A stretch of 37,921 nt of DNA from a virus. Lineage: Duplodnaviria > Heunggongvirae > Uroviricota > Caudoviricetes. Below, piece by piece: positions 2,097 through 24,239 of the stretch. Position numbers and translations under genes: made by a program. The notes beneath the pieces were generated by a model. That model was not told where the DNA came from. It was given only the letters and a program-made list of their open reading frames with translations, and ran no database searches. The DNA is taken from IMG/VR virus record IMGVR_UViG_2713896908_000005. The stretch is one strand, 5' to 3'. Numbering within the stretch: position 1 is the first letter of the stretch; each line of letters opens with the position of its first letter.

Positions 2097-2636
2097 ATGC
2101 AACCACTTACATACCAACAGACTAGCGGATTTAGCCCGACTGCGGTGATAAATCGTTCTCAAACAAAACAGGTGCCAGGCCACGAAAAAATCCGTGATGC
2201 CGTCCGCGCCTGGTCGGCTGTAGATAATCAGGATGTCGTTGCCACACTCATTGTGAATGAGTATCGGGAGCAGGGCGGCGGCACCATCGATTTCCCTGAT
2301 GATGTCAGCCGTGCACGCCAGAAGCTGTTCCGCTTCCTCGATAACAAATTCGATTCTGAAAAATACCGAAATAACGTGCGTGAACTGACCCCGGCAATTC
2401 TGGCGGTACTACCGCTGGAATATCGCGGTTACCTGGTTGAGCAGGATAGCTTCATGGCTAGGTTGGCTGAAATGGAAAAGGAACTCAGTGAGGCAAAACA
2501 GGCTGTCATTCTCAACGCACCACGCCACCAGAAACTGAAGGAAATTAGTGAAGGTATTGTGTCGATGTTTCGTGTGGACCCAGATCTGGCTGGTCCATTG
2601 ATGGCGATGGTTACTACCATGCTGGGGGCGATATGA
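2097..2636 (+). CDS. YdaT-like protein (occupies the cII position)
   Basis: 179-aa ORF with AAGGAG SD; motifs EYREQGGG and LTPAILAVLP resemble what I recall of Rac YdaT; assignment from memory, not searched. Confidence 0.5.
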   Translation: MQPLTYQQTSGFSPTAVINRSQTKQVPGHEKIRDAVRAWSAVDNQDVVATLIVNEYREQGGGTIDFPDDVSRARQKLFRFLDNKFDSEKYRNNVRELTPAILAVLPLEYRGYLVEQDSFMARLAEMEKELSEAKQAVILNAPRHQKLKEISEGIVSMFRVDPDLAGPLMAMVTTMLGAI

Positions 2637-2722
2637 CAGGTTCAGAAATGGCGAAAGCCGGTCTGCTGGAACAGAACCGACTTTCAGGTGCAAATCGTAA
2701 CACACTCATTGCGGGAGGAATT

Positions 2723-3652
2723 ATGGCAAACACTGCTGAGATATTCAATTTTCCAGTGCCGGATGCGGCACAAAAGGAGCCGCGCGTGGCAGATCTCGAT
2801 GATGGTTATACGCGCATTGCAAATGAGTTGCTGGAAGCTGTGATGCTGGCCGGATTAACACAGCACCAGCTTCTGGTCTTTCTGGCTGTCATGCGCAAAA
2901 CATATGGCTTTAATAAAAAACTGGATTGGGTTAGCAACGAGCAACTTTCCGAATTAACCGGGATATTGCCGCACAAGTGTTCTGCTGCAAAAAGTGTTCT
3001 GGTAAAGCGTGGGATTTTTATTCAGAGCGGGCGGAATACCGGCATTAATAATGTGGTCAGTGAATGGTCAACATTACCCGAATCAGGTAAGAAAAATAAA
3101 GTTTACCTGAAAGAGGTAAATTTACCTGAATCAGGTAAAAAAAGTTTACCCAAATCAGGTAAAGGCGTTTACCCGAATCAGGTAAACACAAAAGACAAAC
3201 TAACAAAAGACAATATAAAACCTTTTTCGTCCGAGAATTCTGGCGAATCCTCTGACCAACCAGAAAACGATCTTCCTGTGGTGAAACCGGATGCTGCAAT
3301 TCAGAGCGGCAGCAAGTGGGGGACAGCAGAAGACCTGACCGCCGCAGAGTGGATGTTTGACATGGTGAAGACCATCGCGCCATCAGCCAGAAAACCGAAT
3401 TTTGCAGGGTGGGCTAACGATATCCGCCTGATGCGTGAACGTGACGGACGTAACCACCGCGACATGTGCGTGCTGTTCCGCTGGGCATGCCAGGACAACT
3501 TCTGGTCCGGTAACGTGCTAAGTCCGGCCAAACTCCGCGACAAGTGGACCCAGCTCGAAATCAACCGAAACAAGCAACAGGCTGGCGTGACAGCCGGCAA
3601 ACCAAAACTCGACCTGACGAACACTGACTGGATTTACGGGGTGGAGCTATGA
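2723..3652 (+). CDS. O: replication initiator, lambda O-like
   Basis: Start chosen at ATG 2723 (GGAGG SD) rather than ORF start 2633; N-terminus MANTAEIFNF...ADLDDGYTRIANELLEA...LAVMRKTYGFNK and C-terminus LDLTNTDWIYGVEL parallel lambda O as I recall it; iterons lie inside the gene. Confidence 0.85.
   Translation: MANTAEIFNFPVPDAAQKEPRVADLDDGYTRIANELLEAVMLAGLTQHQLLVFLAVMRKTYGFNKKLDWVSNEQLSELTGILPHKCSAAKSVLVKRGIFIQSGRNTGINNVVSEWSTLPESGKKNKVYLKEVNLPESGKKSLPKSGKGVYPNQVNTKDKLTKDNIKPFSSENSGESSDQPENDLPVVKPDAAIQSGSKWGTAEDLTAAEWMFDMVKTIAPSARKPNFAGWANDIRLMRERDGRNHRDMCVLFRWACQDNFWSGNVLSPAKLRDKWTQLEINRNKQQAGVTAGKPKLDLTNTDWIYGVEL
3074..3186. repeat. origin-of-replication iterons (5 copies of an approx 19-bp unit) inside the O-like gene
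   Basis: Units TTACCCGAATCAGGTAA (3074-3090), TTTACCTGAAAGAGGTAAA (3102-3120), TTTACCTGAATCAGGTAAA (3121-3139), TTTACCCAAATCAGGTAAA (3145-3163), TTTACCCGAATCAGGTAAA (3168-3186); each unit is an inverted repeat (TTTACC..GGTAAA); followed by an A-rich tract 3187-3235. Confidence 0.85.
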
Positions 3653-4350
3653 AAAACATCGCCGCACAGATGGTTAACTTTGACTGTGAGCAGATGCGCC
3701 GGATCGCCAACAACATGCCGGAACAGTACGACGAAAAGCCACAGGTACAGCAGGTAGCGCAGATCATCAACGGTGTGTTCAGCCAGTTACTGGCAACTTT
3801 CCCGGCGAGCCTGGCTAACCGTGACCAGAATGAACTGAACGAAATCCGCCGCCAGTGGGTTCTGGCTTTCCGGGAAAACGGGATCACCACAATGGAACAG
3901 GTTAACGCTGGAATGCGCGTAGCCCGTCGGCAGAATCGACCATTCCTGCCATCACCCGGGCAGTTTGTCGCCTGGTGCCGGGAAGAAGCATCTGTTAACG
4001 CCGGGCTGCCAAACGTCAGCGAGCTGGTTGATATGGTTTACGAGTATTGCCGGAAGCGTGGACTGTATCCGGATGCAGAGTCTTATCCGTGGAAATCGAA
4101 CGCGCATTACTGGTTGGTTACCAACTTGTACCAGAACATGCGGGCCAATGCGCTGACTGACGCGGAATTACGGCGCAAGGCTGCCGATGAACTGACCTGT
4201 ATGACAGCGCGAATTAACCGTGGTGAGACGATACCTGAACCAGTAAAACAACTTCCTGTTATGGGCGGTAGACCTCTAAATCGTGCACAGGCTCTGGCGA
4301 AGATCGCAGAAATTAAAGCTAAGTTCGGACTGAAAGGAGCAAGTGTATGA
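3649..4350 (+). CDS. P: replication protein P-like (DnaB helicase loader)
   Basis: 233-aa product (MKNIAAQMVNFD...KAKFGLKGASV) closely matches lambda P as I recall it, including length; start overlaps the O stop. Confidence 0.9.
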   Translation: MKNIAAQMVNFDCEQMRRIANNMPEQYDEKPQVQQVAQIINGVFSQLLATFPASLANRDQNELNEIRRQWVLAFRENGITTMEQVNAGMRVARRQNRPFLPSPGQFVAWCREEASVNAGLPNVSELVDMVYEYCRKRGLYPDAESYPWKSNAHYWLVTNLYQNMRANALTDAELRRKAADELTCMTARINRGETIPEPVKQLPVMGGRPLNRAQALAKIAEIKAKFGLKGASV

Positions 4351-4716: not shown

Positions 4717-5049
4717 ATGAACCCTTATATTTATCTTGGTGGTGCAATACTTGCAGAGGTCATTGGTACAACCTTAATGAAGTTTTCAGAAGGTTTTACA
4801 CGGTTATGGCCATCTGTTGGTACAATTATTTGTTATTGTGCATCATTCTGGTTATTAGCTCAGACGCTGGCTTATATTCCTACAGGGATTGCTTATGCTA
4901 TCTGGTCAGGAGTCGGTATTGTCCTGATTAGCTTACTGTCATGGGGATTTTTCGGCCAACGGCTGGACCTGCCAGCCATTATAGGCATGATGTTGATTTG
5001 TGCCGGTGTGTTGGTTATTAATTTATTGTCACGAAGCACACCACATTAA
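4717..5049 (+). CDS. emrE: small multidrug resistance (SMR) efflux transporter EmrE
   Basis: Start at internal ATG 4717; 110-aa product MNPYIYLGGAILAEVIGTTLMKFSEGFTRLWPS... with four hydrophobic helices and the conserved membrane-embedded Glu (AEVIGT); matches E. coli EmrE as recalled. Confidence 0.9.
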   Translation: MNPYIYLGGAILAEVIGTTLMKFSEGFTRLWPSVGTIICYCASFWLLAQTLAYIPTGIAYAIWSGVGIVLISLLSWGFFGQRLDLPAIIGMMLICAGVLVINLLSRSTPH

Positions 5050-5114: not shown

Positions 5115-5304
5115 CTTTTTGTTAATGTCTTTATTTTTTATGTATTCTTTTGTGCTTTCAAGATTATGGCGTAAGAAAATTGCAATACGATTATTGTTGT
5201 ATATTCAAGATAATGTGACCTTAATTGTCTTTTTAAATAAAAATTAAACAAAAATTATATCCCACCACTAAGGTTTATAAAAGCATACGTTAGCAGGTGT
5301 CACC

Positions 5305-6831
5305 ATGAAAAAAGCCATAGCATATATGCGATTTTCATCACCAGGTCAGATGTCTGGCGACTCATTAAACCGACAGAGAAGACTTATTGCTGAATGGTTA
5401 AAGGTAAATGGTGATTATTATCTTGATACCATAACATATGAAGATTTAGGATTAAGTGCATTCAAAGGAAAGCATGCACAATCAGGAGCTTTTTCGGAAT
5501 TTTTAGATGCTATAGAGCATGGTTATATATTGCCAGGAACTACATTGTTAGTTGAAAGTCTGGACAGACTTTCAAGAGAAAAAGTCGGTGAAGCGATTGA
5601 ACGTCTGAAATTGATTTTGAATCACGGTATTGATGTTATAACTCTTTGCGACAATACAGTCTATAATATTGACTCTTTGAATGAGCCATATTCATTAATA
5701 AAAGCCATACTTATAGCACAAAGGGCAAATGAAGAAAGCGAGATAAAGTCAAGTCGGGTTAAATTATCATGGAAGAAAAAACGGCAGGATGCACTGGAAT
5801 CAGGTACGATTATGACGGCGTCTTGTCCGAGATGGCTCTCCTTAGATGACAAAAGAACGGCTTTTGTTCCAGACCCCGACAGGGTGAAAACTATTGAGCT
5901 AATTTTTAAACTCAGGATGGAAAGGCGCTCATTGAATGCAATAGCCAAGTATTTAAATGATCATGCTGTAAAGAATTTCTCAGGAAAAGAAAGTGCATGG
6001 GGACCTTCTGTAATTGAAAAATTATTAGCGAATAAAGCTCTGATAGGTATATGCGTACCTTCATATCGTGCAAGAGGGAAAGGGATAAGTGAAATCGCTG
6101 GCTATTATCCCAGAGTCATATCAGATGATTTGTTTTACGCTGTACAGGAAATTCGGTTGGCACCTTTTGGTATTAGCAATAGTAGCAAGAATCCTATGCT
6201 AATAAATCTACTTCGAACAGTTATGAAGTGTGAGGCTTGTGGTAATACCATGATTGTTCATGCGGTATCTGGAAGTTTGCATGGCTATTATGTTTGTCCG
6301 ATGAGAAGATTACATCGATGTGACAGGCCATCAATAAAAAGAGATTTGGTTGATTATAATATCATTAATGAATTGCTTTTTAATTGTAGCAAAATTCAAC
6401 CAGTTGAAAACAAGAAAGATGCTAATGAAACTTTAGAGTTAAAAATTATTGAGCTTCAGATGAAAATTAATAATTTAATCGTTGCATTGTCTGTCGCGCC
6501 TGAAGTTACCGCTATAGCAGAGAAAATAAGACTATTAGATAAGGAATTACGAAGGGCTTCGGTATCATTGAAAACTTTGAAGAGTAAAGGTGTAAATTCA
6601 TTCAGTGATTTTTATGCTATTGACTTAACCAGTAAAAATGGACGAGAGTTATGCCGTACACTTGCCTATAAAACATTCGAAAAAATCATAATTAATACGG
6701 ATAATAAAACCTGTGATATCTATTTTATGAATGGCATTGTTTTTAAACACTATCCTTTAATGAAAGTAATATCCGCCCAGCAGGCGATAAGTGCTCTCAA
6801 ATATATGGTTGATGGTGAGGTTTATTTTTGA
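5305..6831 (+). CDS. ybcK: large serine recombinase (YbcK-like)
   Basis: 508 aa; N-terminal resolvase-type catalytic domain (AIAYMRFSSPGQ with candidate nucleophile Ser, later LDRLSR), long C-terminal extension with Cys cluster (CEACGNT...YYVCPMRRLHRC) and coiled coil; AT-rich, follows emrE as in DLP12. Confidence 0.8.
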   Translation: MKKAIAYMRFSSPGQMSGDSLNRQRRLIAEWLKVNGDYYLDTITYEDLGLSAFKGKHAQSGAFSEFLDAIEHGYILPGTTLLVESLDRLSREKVGEAIERLKLILNHGIDVITLCDNTVYNIDSLNEPYSLIKAILIAQRANEESEIKSSRVKLSWKKKRQDALESGTIMTASCPRWLSLDDKRTAFVPDPDRVKTIELIFKLRMERRSLNAIAKYLNDHAVKNFSGKESAWGPSVIEKLLANKALIGICVPSYRARGKGISEIAGYYPRVISDDLFYAVQEIRLAPFGISNSSKNPMLINLLRTVMKCEACGNTMIVHAVSGSLHGYYVCPMRRLHRCDRPSIKRDLVDYNIINELLFNCSKIQPVENKKDANETLELKIIELQMKINNLIVALSVAPEVTAIAEKIRLLDKELRRASVSLKTLKSKGVNSFSDFYAIDLTSKNGRELCRTLAYKTFEKIIINTDNKTCDIYFMNGIVFKHYPLMKVISAQQAISALKYMVDGEVYF

Positions 6832-10273: not shown

Positions 10274-11557
10274 CTATGACCGCGAAAAGTAGTGATGGTT
10301 CAGTTCTTTTGCAAAATAGTGCTTACGTTTAACCCAGATAAAACCATCAGCTTTAGAAATGATTGCAACATCTATGGGGCCTCCCACTGTTTCAGTATCA
10401 TCGGAGACCTTGCGCTTGAAAGCGGTTAAATTTACTAATGATTCAGCCATATAAGCTAAATCTTGCTTGGGTAAAAACTCGATCATATTTACGACTTTGT
10501 CAACATAGTTTTCTCGGACAAAGCTATCAATACGCCCCTTGCAATCGGAAACAGTTCTGCGCACTACATCAACTATAGCATCCTTAGCTCCTTCGATATC
10601 TGAAGTAGGCACCAAATCTGTGATTACTGAATCAATACCGTCAAGTAAATCGACGATAGAACGTTGATACTCAGCATGAAGATTTTGGATAAGATGTGAA
10701 CTAGCTCCTTGCATGAAAGCAGAAACTTCATCCTCTTGCGCAAAAGGAGTCACGCCGCAATTAGGAGTGATGCAGCACTTGTCAGCATCTGTAGTTTTCC
10801 TGATTTTATCATTAAAGAAGCCACAAACTTCATATGATAATACTTTAGGGTAATAGTCTTTATCGCCATAACCTGCAATCACAATCCCAGAGACGGAACC
10901 GATATCACTTTGCTTGCATATCATAGCTGCCAAAACATCACTAACTACTTTTGTCAACTGTGGAGTTATGGATATTGGATCAAAGTCACTAAACTTTTGA
11001 GCAATGATGCGTTGGGCAACTGATGAAGCATAGGTTTGGGCTGCTTGTTCATCATCCGGAGTAAAACCATCAAAGTAATTAATATCAGATAATTTTGTAA
11101 GGAGATCGTTGCAATAATTTGTAAGGTCTGTAACAAATTGATTCTTATTGAAGTTAACGAAATATGTTGGTTCGAGACCTTCAGAAAAAGCATCAACAAG
11201 CATGCTGAATACAATCTCGCTCAGGAAGTGATAAAGATGAGCCTCACGCATACCTGGTGTGATGATTGATTTAGCCGACTGTAGATAATTGAAGAAATCC
11301 TCAGCATATTCCTCCAAAGAGTCAAAACATTTAGAGCCTAAATCCTTTCTATAAGCCTTGATGATAAGCTCCCATGGAGCTGTGCAGAGATCACCAGTTC
11401 CATATACCATCAAACCTACAGGATGATGTTTAGTCAGAGCGAAAAGCTTTTCAGCGCCATTATAGATTTTATGTTTGCCGCCTCCAGAAATTGTTACAGC
11501 TGAATCTGCGGCTAAAGCTACTGCGGTCTTGTTAAATACGGCTATTTCTGCTGTCAT
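10274..11557 (-). CDS. uncharacterised 427-aa cargo protein on the opposite strand between Q and the lysis cassette
   Basis: Long minus-strand ORF, markedly AT-rich relative to flanking phage genes; own sigma70-like promoter and a terminator hairpin downstream; no signal peptide, no Walker A, no family recognised by eye. Confidence 0.8.
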   Translation of the reverse strand: MTAEIAVFNKTAVALAADSAVTISGGGKHKIYNGAEKLFALTKHHPVGLMVYGTGDLCTAPWELIIKAYRKDLGSKCFDSLEEYAEDFFNYLQSAKSIITPGMREAHLYHFLSEIVFSMLVDAFSEGLEPTYFVNFNKNQFVTDLTNYCNDLLTKLSDINYFDGFTPDDEQAAQTYASSVAQRIIAQKFSDFDPISITPQLTKVVSDVLAAMICKQSDIGSVSGIVIAGYGDKDYYPKVLSYEVCGFFNDKIRKTTDADKCCITPNCGVTPFAQEDEVSAFMQGASSHLIQNLHAEYQRSIVDLLDGIDSVITDLVPTSDIEGAKDAIVDVVRRTVSDCKGRIDSFVRENYVDKVVNMIEFLPKQDLAYMAESLVNLTAFKRKVSDDTETVGGPIDVAIISKADGFIWVKRKHYFAKELNHHYFSRS

Positions 11558-19502: not shown

Positions 19503-20732
19503 ATGAAACTGCATGAACTGAAACAGAAACGTAATACTATCGCAACTGACATGCGCGCCCTGAATGAAAAAATTGGTGATAACGCATGGACGGAAGAGCA
19601 GCGCACTGAGTGGAACAAAGCAAAATCCGAACTGGAAGCGCTTGATGAACGAATTGCACGCGAAGAAGAACTGCGTCGTCAGGATCAGGCGTACATTGAA
19701 AGCAATGAGGAAGAGCAGCGTCAGAATCTTGATCCGGAAAACAATCCGCAACAGGATGAGAAACGAGCTCAGGTTTTTGATAAGTGGATGCGTCACGGTG
19801 CCAGTGAGCTGACATCAGAAGAACGAAAGGCGTTGCGTGAACTTCGTGCCCAGGGTGTAGCTCAGGATGAAAAGGGCGGATATACCGTACCAGAAACATT
19901 CCTGGCGAAAGTTGTTGAGAAGATGAAATCCTACGGTGGCATCGCCAGTGTGGCGCAGATTCTGACCACTTCTGACGGTCGCACTATGGAGTGGGCAACA
20001 GCTGATGGTACTTCCGAAGTTGGTGTTCTGCTGGGCGAAAATGAAGAAGCCGGTGAAGAAGACACCGATTTCGGTATGGGAAGTCTTGGGGCGCTCAAAA
20101 TGACATCGAAAATCATTCGTGTGTCTAATGAGTTGCTGCAGGACAGCGCGATCGATATGGAAGCTTATCTTGCCCGTCGCATTGCTGAACGTATTGGTCG
20201 TGGTGAAGCCCGTTATCTGATTCAGGGAACTGGTGCTGGTACGCCTAAACAACCCAAAGGGCTGGTCGCATCTGTGACCGGCACAACACAGACTGCCGCG
20301 GCAAATACTGTGAAGTGGCAGGAAATTCTGGCTCTGAAACACAGCATTGATCCCGCATATCGTCGCGGGCCGAAATTTCGCCTGGCGTTTAACGATAATA
20401 CGCTGAAACTGATCAGTGAGATGGAAGACGGTCAGGGACGCCCTTTATGGTTGCCGGATATTGTTGGTGTGGCACCTGCTTCAGTGTTGAATGTACCGTA
20501 TGTCATTGATCAGGAAATTGATGATATCGGGGCGGGTAAAAAATTCATGTTCTGTGGTGACTTTGATCGCTTCATTATCCGTCGTGTGCGATACATGATT
20601 CTTAAACGTCTGGTTGAGCGTTACGCGGAATATGATCAGACCGGTTTTCTGGCCTTCCATCGTTTTGACTGTATCCTGGAAGACACCTCTGCCATTAAAG
20701 CGCTGGTGGGGAAAGGTAGCGTTGGTGGTTGA
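19503..20732 (+). CDS. major capsid protein (HK97 fold) with N-terminal coiled-coil delta domain
   Basis: 409 aa; N-terminal about 100 aa charged coiled coil (scaffold-like), then capsid core; follows protease. Confidence 0.9.
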   Translation: MKLHELKQKRNTIATDMRALNEKIGDNAWTEEQRTEWNKAKSELEALDERIAREEELRRQDQAYIESNEEEQRQNLDPENNPQQDEKRAQVFDKWMRHGASELTSEERKALRELRAQGVAQDEKGGYTVPETFLAKVVEKMKSYGGIASVAQILTTSDGRTMEWATADGTSEVGVLLGENEEAGEEDTDFGMGSLGALKMTSKIIRVSNELLQDSAIDMEAYLARRIAERIGRGEARYLIQGTGAGTPKQPKGLVASVTGTTQTAAANTVKWQEILALKHSIDPAYRRGPKFRLAFNDNTLKLISEMEDGQGRPLWLPDIVGVAPASVLNVPYVIDQEIDDIGAGKKFMFCGDFDRFIIRRVRYMILKRLVERYAEYDQTGFLAFHRFDCILEDTSAIKALVGKGSVGG

Positions 20733-22588: not shown

Positions 22589-22759
22589 ATGTTTGTGAAA
22601 CCTGTTAAAGGGCGGTCAGTGCCTGACCCTGCCCGCGGTGACCTTTTGCCCGCCGAAGGGCGAAATGTTGACGAGAACAACTACTGGCTGCGCCGTGAAG
22701 CAGCGGGTGATATCCGGCGCGTTAATAAAAAGGTGAACACCGATGACGATAAGCTTTAA
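22589..22759 (+). CDS. small conserved protein upstream of sheath (DUF2635-like), 56 aa
   Basis: MFVKPVKGRSVPDPARGDLLPAEGRNVDENNYWLRREAAGDIRRVNKKVNTDDDKL; below ORF-track cutoff; overlaps sheath start; family assignment from memory. Confidence 0.4.
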   Translation: MFVKPVKGRSVPDPARGDLLPAEGRNVDENNYWLRREAAGDIRRVNKKVNTDDDKL

Positions 22760-24239
22760 CACCATTCCGTCGAATACACTGGTTCCGCTGTTTTATGCGG
22801 AAATGGATAACCAGGCGGCGAATACTGCACAGGACAGCGGGGCATCGCTGCTGATTGGTCATGCCAATAACGGTGCAGAGATTGTTGCCAACAGTCTGGT
22901 GCTGATGCCGTCGGCAGACTATGCACGCCAGATTTGTGGTGCGGGAAGTCAGCTGGCGCGTATGGTCGAGGCTTATCGCCAGACCGACCCGTTTGGTGAG
23001 CTGTATGTGATTGCCGTTCCGGAAGCCACAGGCGCGGCGGCAACGGTTACGCTGACGGTGACCGGGGAAGCAACCGAAAGCGGCACGGTGAATGTCTATG
23101 TGGGACGTACCCGCGTGCAGGCTCCGGTGACCAACGGCGATAACGTCACGACGATTGCCAGCAGTATCCAGGATGCCATCAATGCCGTTCCGACTCTGCC
23201 GTTTACAGCTTCATCTTCGGCTGGTGTTGTCACGCTGACCGCGCGTCATAAGGGGCTTTGCGGGAATGAAATTCCTGTCAGCCTCAATTACTACGGCTTC
23301 GGTGGGGGCGAAGTGCTGCCAGCGGGCGTACAGATTGCCGTGGCGACGGGGACCGCCGGAACGGGCGCTCCGGTTCTCACCGGCGCGGTGGCTGCAATGG
23401 CGGATGAGCCGTTTGATTATATCGGTCTGCCGTTCAACGACACGGCCTCCGTTAACACGCTGGTGACCGAGATGAACGATACCAGCGGTCGCTGGAGCTA
23501 TGCGCGTCAGCTGTATGGTCATGTGTATACGGCAAAGACCGGCACACTGTCAGAACTGGTGAACGCAGGTGACCAGTTTAACCAGCAGCACATCACCCTG
23601 GCGGGGTACGAAAAAGAGACCCAGACGCCTGCCGACGAGCTGGCGGCAAGCCGTACCGCCCGCGCAGCGGTGTTTATCCGCAACGATCCGGCACGTCCCA
23701 CGCAGACCGGTGAGCTGGTGGGTATGCTGCCTGCGCCGAAGGGGAAACGGTTCACGATGACCGAGCAGCAGACCCTGCTGTCTCATGGCGTGGCAACGGC
23801 GTATGTCGAAAGCGGGGTGCTGCGCATTCAGCGTGATGTCACCACGTACAGGAAAAATGCTTACGGGGTTGCGGATAACAGCTACCTCGACAGCGAGACG
23901 CTGCATACCAGTGCGTATGTACTGCGCAAACTGAAATCCGTCATTACCAGTAAGTACGGGCGTCACAAGCTTGCCAGCGACGGTACCCGCTTTGGTCCCG
24001 GTCAGGCGATTGTCACCCCGGCGGTAATCAAAGGCGAACTGCTGGCAACCTACCGTCAGCTCGAGCGTGCGGGCATCGTGGAAAACTACGAACTGTTTAA
24101 GCAGTACCTGGTTGTGGAGCGTGATGCCAGCGATCCGAACCGCCTGAACACGCTGTTCCCGCCTGACTATGTTAACCAGTTGCGTGTCTTTGCCGTGGTT
24201 AACCAGTTCCGTCTTCAGTATTCAGAGGAGTCTGCATAA
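22743..24239 (+). CDS. contractile tail sheath protein (Mu gpL-like)
   Basis: 498 aa; size and position before the tube gene; Mu-like myovirus tail module. Confidence 0.85.
   Translation: MTISFNTIPSNTLVPLFYAEMDNQAANTAQDSGASLLIGHANNGAEIVANSLVLMPSADYARQICGAGSQLARMVEAYRQTDPFGELYVIAVPEATGAAATVTLTVTGEATESGTVNVYVGRTRVQAPVTNGDNVTTIASSIQDAINAVPTLPFTASSSAGVVTLTARHKGLCGNEIPVSLNYYGFGGGEVLPAGVQIAVATGTAGTGAPVLTGAVAAMADEPFDYIGLPFNDTASVNTLVTEMNDTSGRWSYARQLYGHVYTAKTGTLSELVNAGDQFNQQHITLAGYEKETQTPADELAASRTARAAVFIRNDPARPTQTGELVGMLPAPKGKRFTMTEQQTLLSHGVATAYVESGVLRIQRDVTTYRKNAYGVADNSYLDSETLHTSAYVLRKLKSVITSKYGRHKLASDGTRFGPGQAIVTPAVIKGELLATYRQLERAGIVENYELFKQYLVVERDASDPNRLNTLFPPDYVNQLRVFAVVNQFRLQYSEESA

Follow-up and report, generated by a model that had tools for sequence, protein, structure and literature searches.

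The virus record IMGVR_UViG_2713896908_000005 of the IMG/VR collection (37,921 nucleotides; the whole stretch is hereafter called the window) carries, inside a gene that encodes an O-family replication initiator, an array of five palindromic iterons followed by an A-rich tract. Judged from its sequence, this element is very probably the bidirectional (theta) replication origin of a lambdoid prophage, with the build of the lambda origin and a different initiator/iteron specificity. The features that distinguish a lambda-type origin at the sequence level were found: a location within the initiator gene, at least four iterons of dyad symmetry, the spacing of these iterons, an A/T-rich and strand-asymmetric tract of about 40 bp, and a downstream gene for the cognate helicase loader. 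A sequence-only reading of the same DNA had proposed a phage origin at this place, and every feature of a lambda-type origin that can be tested at that level is present. That the isolated phages PhiR34_1 and Turner carry the element suggests that it works.

Architecture of the iteron array and the adjacent A-rich tract

The array is formed by five copies of the 17-nt palindrome TTACCYRAATCAGGTAA, which start at positions 3074, 3103, 3122, 3146 and 3169 (cores 3074-3090, 3103-3119, 3122-3138, 3146-3162 and 3169-3185). All of them follow a 6-5-6 layout, TTACCY-N5-RGGTAA, in which 5 or 6 of the 6 arm positions are complementary, and every copy is an inverted repeat. When the whole window was scanned with this pattern allowing up to three mismatches, the only matches were the five sites of the array and an unrelated three-mismatch site at 20213; in 100 dinucleotide shuffles of the window the mean was 0.28 matches, and the observed number was reached in none of them. 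The five palindromic copies previously claimed for this region are therefore all present and far above chance. The spacing that had been given for them, 20-27 bp, has to be corrected, given that the start-to-start distances are 29, 19, 24 and 23 bp.

The individual copies are not equivalent. Iteron 1 (ATTACCCGAATCAGGTAAG, 3073..3091; frame 0, LPESGK) is an extra upstream copy, placed 29 bp before iteron 2 and devoid of the outer T and A; iteron 2 (TTTACCTGAAAGAGGTAAA, 3102..3120; frame 2, YLKEVN) has a variant centre, GAAAGAG; iteron 3 (TTTACCTGAATCAGGTAAA, 3121..3139; frame 0, LPESGK) is a perfect palindrome except for its central base; iteron 4 (TTTACCCAAATCAGGTAAA, 3145..3163) is read in frame 0 (LPKSGK); and iteron 5 (TTTACCCGAATCAGGTAAA, 3168..3186; frame 2, YPNQVN) abuts the A-rich tract. 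The 19-mer originally described as the repeat unit fits copies 3, 4 and 5 fully, and fails at the ends of copy 1 and in the centre of copy 2. In the lambda record four iterons are annotated, at 39034, 39054, 39078 and 39101 (spacing of 20/24/23 bp), and these lambda iterons 1 to 4 align column for column and ungapped with iterons 2 to 5 of the window, respectively, whose spacing is 19/24/23 bp. The description of the array as exactly that of lambda is thus accurate for iterons 2-5 and for the A-rich tract, which are in register, and inaccurate for the number of iterons, five and not four, since iteron 1 has no lambda counterpart.

Directly after iteron 5 lies the A-rich tract CACAAAAGACAAACTAACAAAAGACAATATAAAACCTTTT (3187..3226, plus strand), 40 nt long with 23 A residues and 75% A+T, which sits within the least stable duplex stretch of the O gene. 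The A-rich segment that had been noticed behind the iterons is in this way confirmed, and it is homologous to the lambda A/T tract (ACACAAAAGACA...ACAAAAGA). A CACAAAAGAMA..CAAAAGA motif is common to nearly all the O-family origin types examined, and we infer that the tract is the DNA-unwinding element. To its right, an inverted repeat with 6 of 7 pairs, GTCCGAG(N14)CTCTGAC (3229..3256), is homologous to the dyad GTCAGAG..CTCTGAC that lambda has at the right of its A/T tract; the GTCCGAG variant is also found in phage 933W. From a loss of register in an ungapped comparison, one other IMG/VR locus appears to have an insertion in the A-rich tract.

The O gene itself (2723..3652, plus strand) encodes a protein of 309 aa with a Pfam Phage_rep_O match (E=1.1e-33). 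The reading frame is open from an ATG at 2633 to 3652, and the start homologous to that of lambda is the ATG at 2723, which follows GGGAGGA and has a Shine-Dalgarno sequence; from it the window protein begins with MANTAE and lambda O with MTNTAK, and the corresponding ATG is also the annotated start of the homologues in Klebsiella and SEN34. Phage records give O as 339 aa, starting at an ATG that overlaps the upstream stop codon (window 2633-2722); the first 30 codons of that annotation are probably an over-extension, which overlaps the possible oop-like element described below. The protein is 67% identical to lambda O overall and is a mosaic: the N-terminal origin-binding domain (aa 1-117, 2723..3073, plus strand), which is covered by the Pfam match, shows 48% identity, and the C-terminal part (aa 169-309, 3227..3652, plus strand), the presumed P-binding domain, is identical at 138 of 141 residues. 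The roles of the O domains, including a flexible linker between them in lambda, have been described (PMC6022878). The iterons (3073-3186) fall in the linker, after the Phage_rep_O domain and before the lambda-like C-terminal part that starts at 3227, in agreement with the earlier placement of the array inside an O-like initiator gene. The sequence in common with lambda begins, on the left, with the A-rich tract; the join between the two portions of the gene falls where the last iteron meets this tract. The start of the next gene overlaps the O stop codon; it encodes a helicase loader of the lambda P type (3649..4350, plus strand; Pfam Phage_lambda_P, E=7.8e-62) identical to lambda P at 227 of 233 residues (97%).

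Specificity of the initiator and exchange of its parts

The resemblance to lambda is then extensive: in both phages the origin lies in the linker of the O gene, the iterons are dyad-symmetric elements of 17-19 bp with the 6-5-6 layout, and their spacing agrees within 1 bp; the A-rich tract (CACAAAAGACA..CAAAAGA), the right-hand dyad and all the sequence rightward are homologous, and the C-terminal part of O and the P protein are nearly the same. In contrast, the lambda iteron is TCCCTCAAAACGAGGGA (TCCCTC-N5-GAGGGA) whereas that of the window is TTACCYGAATCAGGTAA, the segment LPVKRCNEAKL of lambda O is replaced by ILPHKCSAAKS (aa 81-91, 2963..2995, plus strand), which we take as the candidate DNA-recognition segment because it covaries with the iteron type, and the lambda cro and cII genes upstream are replaced by YdaS- and YdaT-like genes. 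The comparison with the lambda and phage 21 origins that had been proposed as a check was carried out: the phage 21 origin is of the lambda type, and lambda-type iterons differ from those of the window. Assignment of the window to the lambda specificity type (lambda, 434, 21, ES18, 933W) was consequently rejected, given that both the iteron and the recognition segment differ.

Among the characterized phages, the closest relative of the N-terminal domain is that of P22 (64.6% identity over aa 19-117), whose origin lies in gene 18 and has related iterons, TTTACCGAWTCGGTAAA, that share the GAATC-like centre, together with a 20/24/23 spacing and the same A-rich tract. It differs in its half-site, TTTACC instead of TTACCC (2 of 6 positions), in its segment, MAPTKCSTAKN, in having four iterons, and in its partner, which is a DnaB-type helicase (gene 12) and not P. 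The P22 type was also rejected for the window, as related yet distinct, on the basis of the half-site and the recognition segment. The iterons of the window are likewise distinct from the phi80-like HK225 type. In theta plasmids (Rep/pi/RepA) the initiator-binding repeats also stand beside an A/T-rich unwinding element, but there the repeats run in direct orientation without palindromic symmetry, are bound by monomers with a roughly helical phasing, and are located outside the rep gene (PMC5043065). An iteron origin of the plasmid Rep type was ruled out, given that the window copies are palindromes, a form that suits binding by dimers, and are placed within the initiator gene.

The origin of the Stx phages 933W and P27 offers a different kind of comparison. 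These phages keep the lambda iteron sequence and N-terminal domain type, whereas the window belongs to another specificity type; nonetheless, they have six iterons, the extra copies being distal to the A-rich tract and lengthening the O linker. In the Stx phages the four tract-proximal iterons were bound strongly, and mutation of either of two upstream iterons abolished plasmid establishment (PMC7466680). These extra iterons are the best precedent for iteron 1.

A record of phage 82 was absent among the matches of at least 95% identity, and for the origins of phage 82 and phi80 the literature yielded no usable sequence. Phage 82 reportedly has five iterons. DLP12-like prophages share late genes with phage 82. 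The type present in the window may therefore be the classical ori82.

A set of 111 analyzable origin loci was gathered only by their shared A-rich motif. Most of these origins show the lambda-like geometry (about 20, 24 and 23 bp towards the tract), and each class of recognition segment has its own half-site. LPVKRCNEAKL occurs with TCCCTC, (I/M)LPHKCSAAKS with TTACCC, LPRQKVN.AK with GTCACC, the HHTH-type with TTAGC, and MAPTKCSTAK (P22 type) with TTTACC; rarer classes are also present. Iterons of the form TTACC..GGTAA were present in 23 of the 23 loci with LPHKCSAAKS and in no locus with another recognition segment. This covariation, which extends across about ten origin types, supports by comparison the earlier suggestion that the repeats act as a specificity determinant. 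A profile of ten N-terminal domains compared with known structures gave only non-significant matches to winged helices of the MarR type (E about 0.75), and this weak alignment places aa 81-91 on the helix-turn-helix; from it and from the covariation, the segment is a candidate recognition helix.

When one genome per prokaryotic species was searched for a pair of neighbouring iterons, ten matches were obtained, in Pseudocitrobacter, Kluyvera, Enterobacter (two species), Xenorhabdus, Arsenophonus, Providencia, Klebsiella and Pantoea (two species). All ten lie inside O-like genes, which encode LPHKCSAAKS in 9 of the 10 species and LSHKCSAAKS in Kluyvera, and the arrays have 4, 5, 7 or 9 iterons with a final spacing of 19/24/23 except in Arsenophonus. 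Iteron 1 is missing from the four-iteron arrays of Xenorhabdus, Providencia, Klebsiella sp. and Pantoea, and is degenerate in Klebsiella phages. In Kluyvera sichuanensis (5257-5464 of the reverse-complemented locus L099) there are nine iterons, with three tandem in-frame units of 48 bp, each formed by two iterons and their spacers, and in Arsenophonus nasoniae (L102, 3468-3625) seven iterons with an altered spacing of 24/26/18/25.

In eight other genera of Enterobacterales, the N-terminal domain and the iterons are paired with at least four different and unrelated C-terminal parts of O. In Klebsiella phages the N-terminal coding sequence is 79% identical and five iterons are kept, the C-terminal part of O is unrelated, and a DnaC-like AAA loader replaces P, with which other homologues are paired. 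These comparisons suggest that the N-terminal domain and the iterons move as one unit, with exchange of the C-terminal part of O and of the gene for the helicase loader. In Escherichia phage D2 (locus L005, OM475427, 1501-2432) roughly the first 246 nt of the O gene are of the window type, and lambda sequence, including the lambda iterons, follows; O is divided into two coding sequences in the record, and the alignment of the junction suggests that the lambda part is out of frame. A chimeric assembly, or a recombinant that is defective, probably accounts for this gene, and as a natural domain-swap test it was set aside as uninformative on account of that split and the apparent loss of frame.

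From the above we lean, with reserve, towards the view that ILPHKCSAAKS together with TTACCYGAATCAGGTAA constitutes a distinct and experimentally uncharacterized O/iteron specificity class, orthogonal to those of lambda and P22 and among the two commonest classes of enterobacterial prophages; that with about ten sister classes of the same geometry it forms a natural recognition code relating segment residues to half-site bases; and that arrays grow or shrink as iterons are gained or lost, giving 4, 5, 7 or 9 copies (in Kluyvera, by repetition of the 48-bp in-frame unit).

Alternative explanations and a possible mechanism

The repeats could be only a coding repeat, that is, a low-complexity flexible linker between the O domains that plays no role as DNA. 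The region does encode a repetitive lysine-rich linker that contains glycine and serine (LPESGKK twice, LPKSGKG once), and lambda O has been described with a flexible linker at this place (PMC6022878). However, the iterons are read in two frames (0, 2, 0, 0, 2), which argues that they have been selected as DNA and not as peptide: the claim that they translate into a PESGKK linker is valid for three copies, while copies 2 and 5, in the other frame, encode the unrelated peptides given above. The repetitive peptide is better understood as a by-product of binding sites placed in the linker of the initiator gene. Moreover, selection on the peptide leaves the inverted-repeat form of each copy unexplained, the lambda spacing is retained within 1 bp despite a different iteron sequence, and in 13 homologues from nine genera the iteron columns are better conserved (1.67 bits) than the spacers (1.02 bits), the A-rich tract reaching 1.69 bits. 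A set of 80 close relatives from IMG/VR (N-terminal domain at least 96% identical) gives a similar picture, with the recurrent polymorphisms falling in the spacers, where 15 of 27 columns vary as compared with 17 of 85 iteron columns, and with the 29/19/24/23 layout retained in all of them but one. In this locus (L014, IMGVR_UViG_2681813004_000008, 1852-1939) four iterons are left after an in-frame loss of 24 bp that merged iterons 3 and 4, an event resembling the in-frame lambda ori deletion r98 (PMC6022878). A role restricted to the peptide is hence highly improbable.

The palindromes might also be operators for another dimeric regulator, such as the prophage repressor, Cro or a host factor, and in fact 17-bp palindromes with a 6-5-6 layout resemble the operators of helix-turn-helix dimers. 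This explanation seems to us just as implausible: the window has no further copy, be it between cI and cro or at any other place, no DnaA boxes were found near the origin, and the iteron type covaries with the N-terminal segment of O while the neighbouring immunity genes differ, being YdaS/YdaT-like here and differently annotated, as Cro/CII-type, in the records of a Klebsiella phage and of phage 21. Somewhat less remote, although still improbable, is that the array does bind O and is an inert relic, or serves chiefly to titrate O or to exclude incoming phages that replicate by the same type of system. Phages dependent on the lambda replication module are inhibited by lambda iterons and oop carried on a plasmid (PMC3349717), the sequence just upstream contains a leftward promoter-like site and a hairpin similar to lambda pO/oop, and the element is found in resident prophages, many of them possibly defective, of about 45% of the E. 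coli genomes. Nevertheless, O, P, the five iterons and the A-rich tract are intact and identical or nearly so to those of isolated phages, the window also has terminase, capsid, sheath and tape-measure genes, and the origin and exclusion roles are not mutually exclusive.

Several observations weigh against a functional lambda-type origin with its own specificity. The covariation was drawn from related sequences and so its instances are not statistically independent; a search of the PDB with the O sequence gave no match, and no solved O structure was found; the single-sequence AlphaFold2 model of the N-terminal domain had a pLDDT of 45 and was unusable; and a full-text search of the literature for the iteron string found no paper. 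In addition, the divergent centre of iteron 2 and the dispensability of iteron 1 in other genera suggest that the five copies may be bound unequally.

If the window element is an origin of this kind, its activity can be pictured from the lambda mechanism (PMC5043065, PMC6022878, PMC7466680). As in lambda, dimers of the prophage O protein would bind the dyad-symmetric iterons through the N-terminal domain, with the residues around 81-91 (ILPHKCSAAKS) reading the TTACCY half-site. On supercoiled DNA, the bound array would bend the DNA and destabilize the A-rich tract beside it (3187-3226). Through its lambda-type C-terminal part, O would recruit P bound to the host helicase DnaB; host chaperones would then free the helicase, and transcription from the rightward early promoter would activate the origin. 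The four tract-proximal iterons would form the conserved core, with iteron 1 as an accessory site comparable to the extra iterons of the Stx phages.

Gene content and distribution of the module

The order of the genes, cI, cro-like, ydaT-like, O and P, is that of lambda. Upstream of O there is a cI-like gene for an S24 repressor, followed by a YdaS-like gene in the position of cro (1797-2027) and a YdaT-like gene in that of cII (2097-2636); these two belong to Pfam 'toxin' families, as in the Rac prophage, and are not lambda cro and cII, even if the YdaT-like gene is labelled 'cII' in phage records. A palindrome with a 9-bp stem, ATGGTTGTTGACTAAAAACAACCAT, was observed at 1734-1758, over the annotated start of the repressor reading frame and beside the divergent cI/cro region; it may be an operator or another regulatory element. 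The 86-nt stretch between the ydaT-like stop and the O start may encode an oop-like antisense RNA: within 2652-2748 the minus strand shows a leftward promoter-like site, TTGAAT-17-(TG)CATAAT, whose −10 overlaps the O start codon at 2723, as in lambda pO, and downstream of it there is a strong minus-strand hairpin (2686 to 2652). A 90-nt RNA from this site folds at -26.2 kcal/mol (z = -2.96) and is followed only by a weak U run. A scan of the whole window against Rfam gave no match.

Downstream of P there are a Ren-like gene, named from homologous phage records, and genes for an EmrE-like transporter and a YbcK-like recombinase, and further downstream the terminase, capsid, tail sheath and tape-measure genes. 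This gene content identifies the window as a lambdoid E. coli prophage similar to DLP12, with a structural module of the contractile-tail type in which the sheath gene occupies 22743-24239. As in DLP12, the small multidrug-resistance transporter (4717-5049) and the large serine recombinase (5305-6831) come just after the ren-like gene, and the same cargo is also present in the isolated phages Turner and PhiR34_1. A minus-strand reading frame of 427 aa (10274-11557) without a Pfam match separates the early-gene region from the genes to its right. Oppositely oriented tail-fibre assembly genes (33308-34491) stand next to the gene for a Pin/Gin-like serine invertase (34482-35072), an arrangement that suggests an invertible host-range segment at 33308-35072.

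The origin module is widespread. Of 5426 complete E. coli genomes, 2448 (about 45%) contain a match to the 251-nt stretch 2950-3200, in 2409 of them with at least 95% identity, and ten records of the plasmid collection match it too. A module of the window type was observed on small non-mobilizable plasmid records, NZ_CP127232.1, NZ_CP146029.1 and CP089956.1 from Klebsiella (28-42 kb) and NZ_AP023208.1 from E. coli (70 kb), which may represent phage-plasmids, or else circular genomes of phages deposited as plasmids. The isolated phages PhiR34_1, PhiR68_2, Turner, 4A7 and Perceval carry it as well, PhiR34_1 being 100% identical over the N-terminal domain and the iterons; no origin is annotated at the module in the two phage records inspected, those of Turner and PhiR34_1.

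The understanding of how lambdoid phages initiate replication is left unchanged by these results, as the architecture is the textbook one and it is the specificity type that is distinct. The annotation of this origin has a practical value, given that about 45% of the complete E. coli genomes contain it: knowing the iteron type would make it possible to predict which co-resident prophages and phages share an initiator or compete for it. The module is also a candidate for a replication system orthogonal to that of lambda, and the correspondence between recognition segments and half-sites could guide mutagenesis or structural work on the initiators of the O family.

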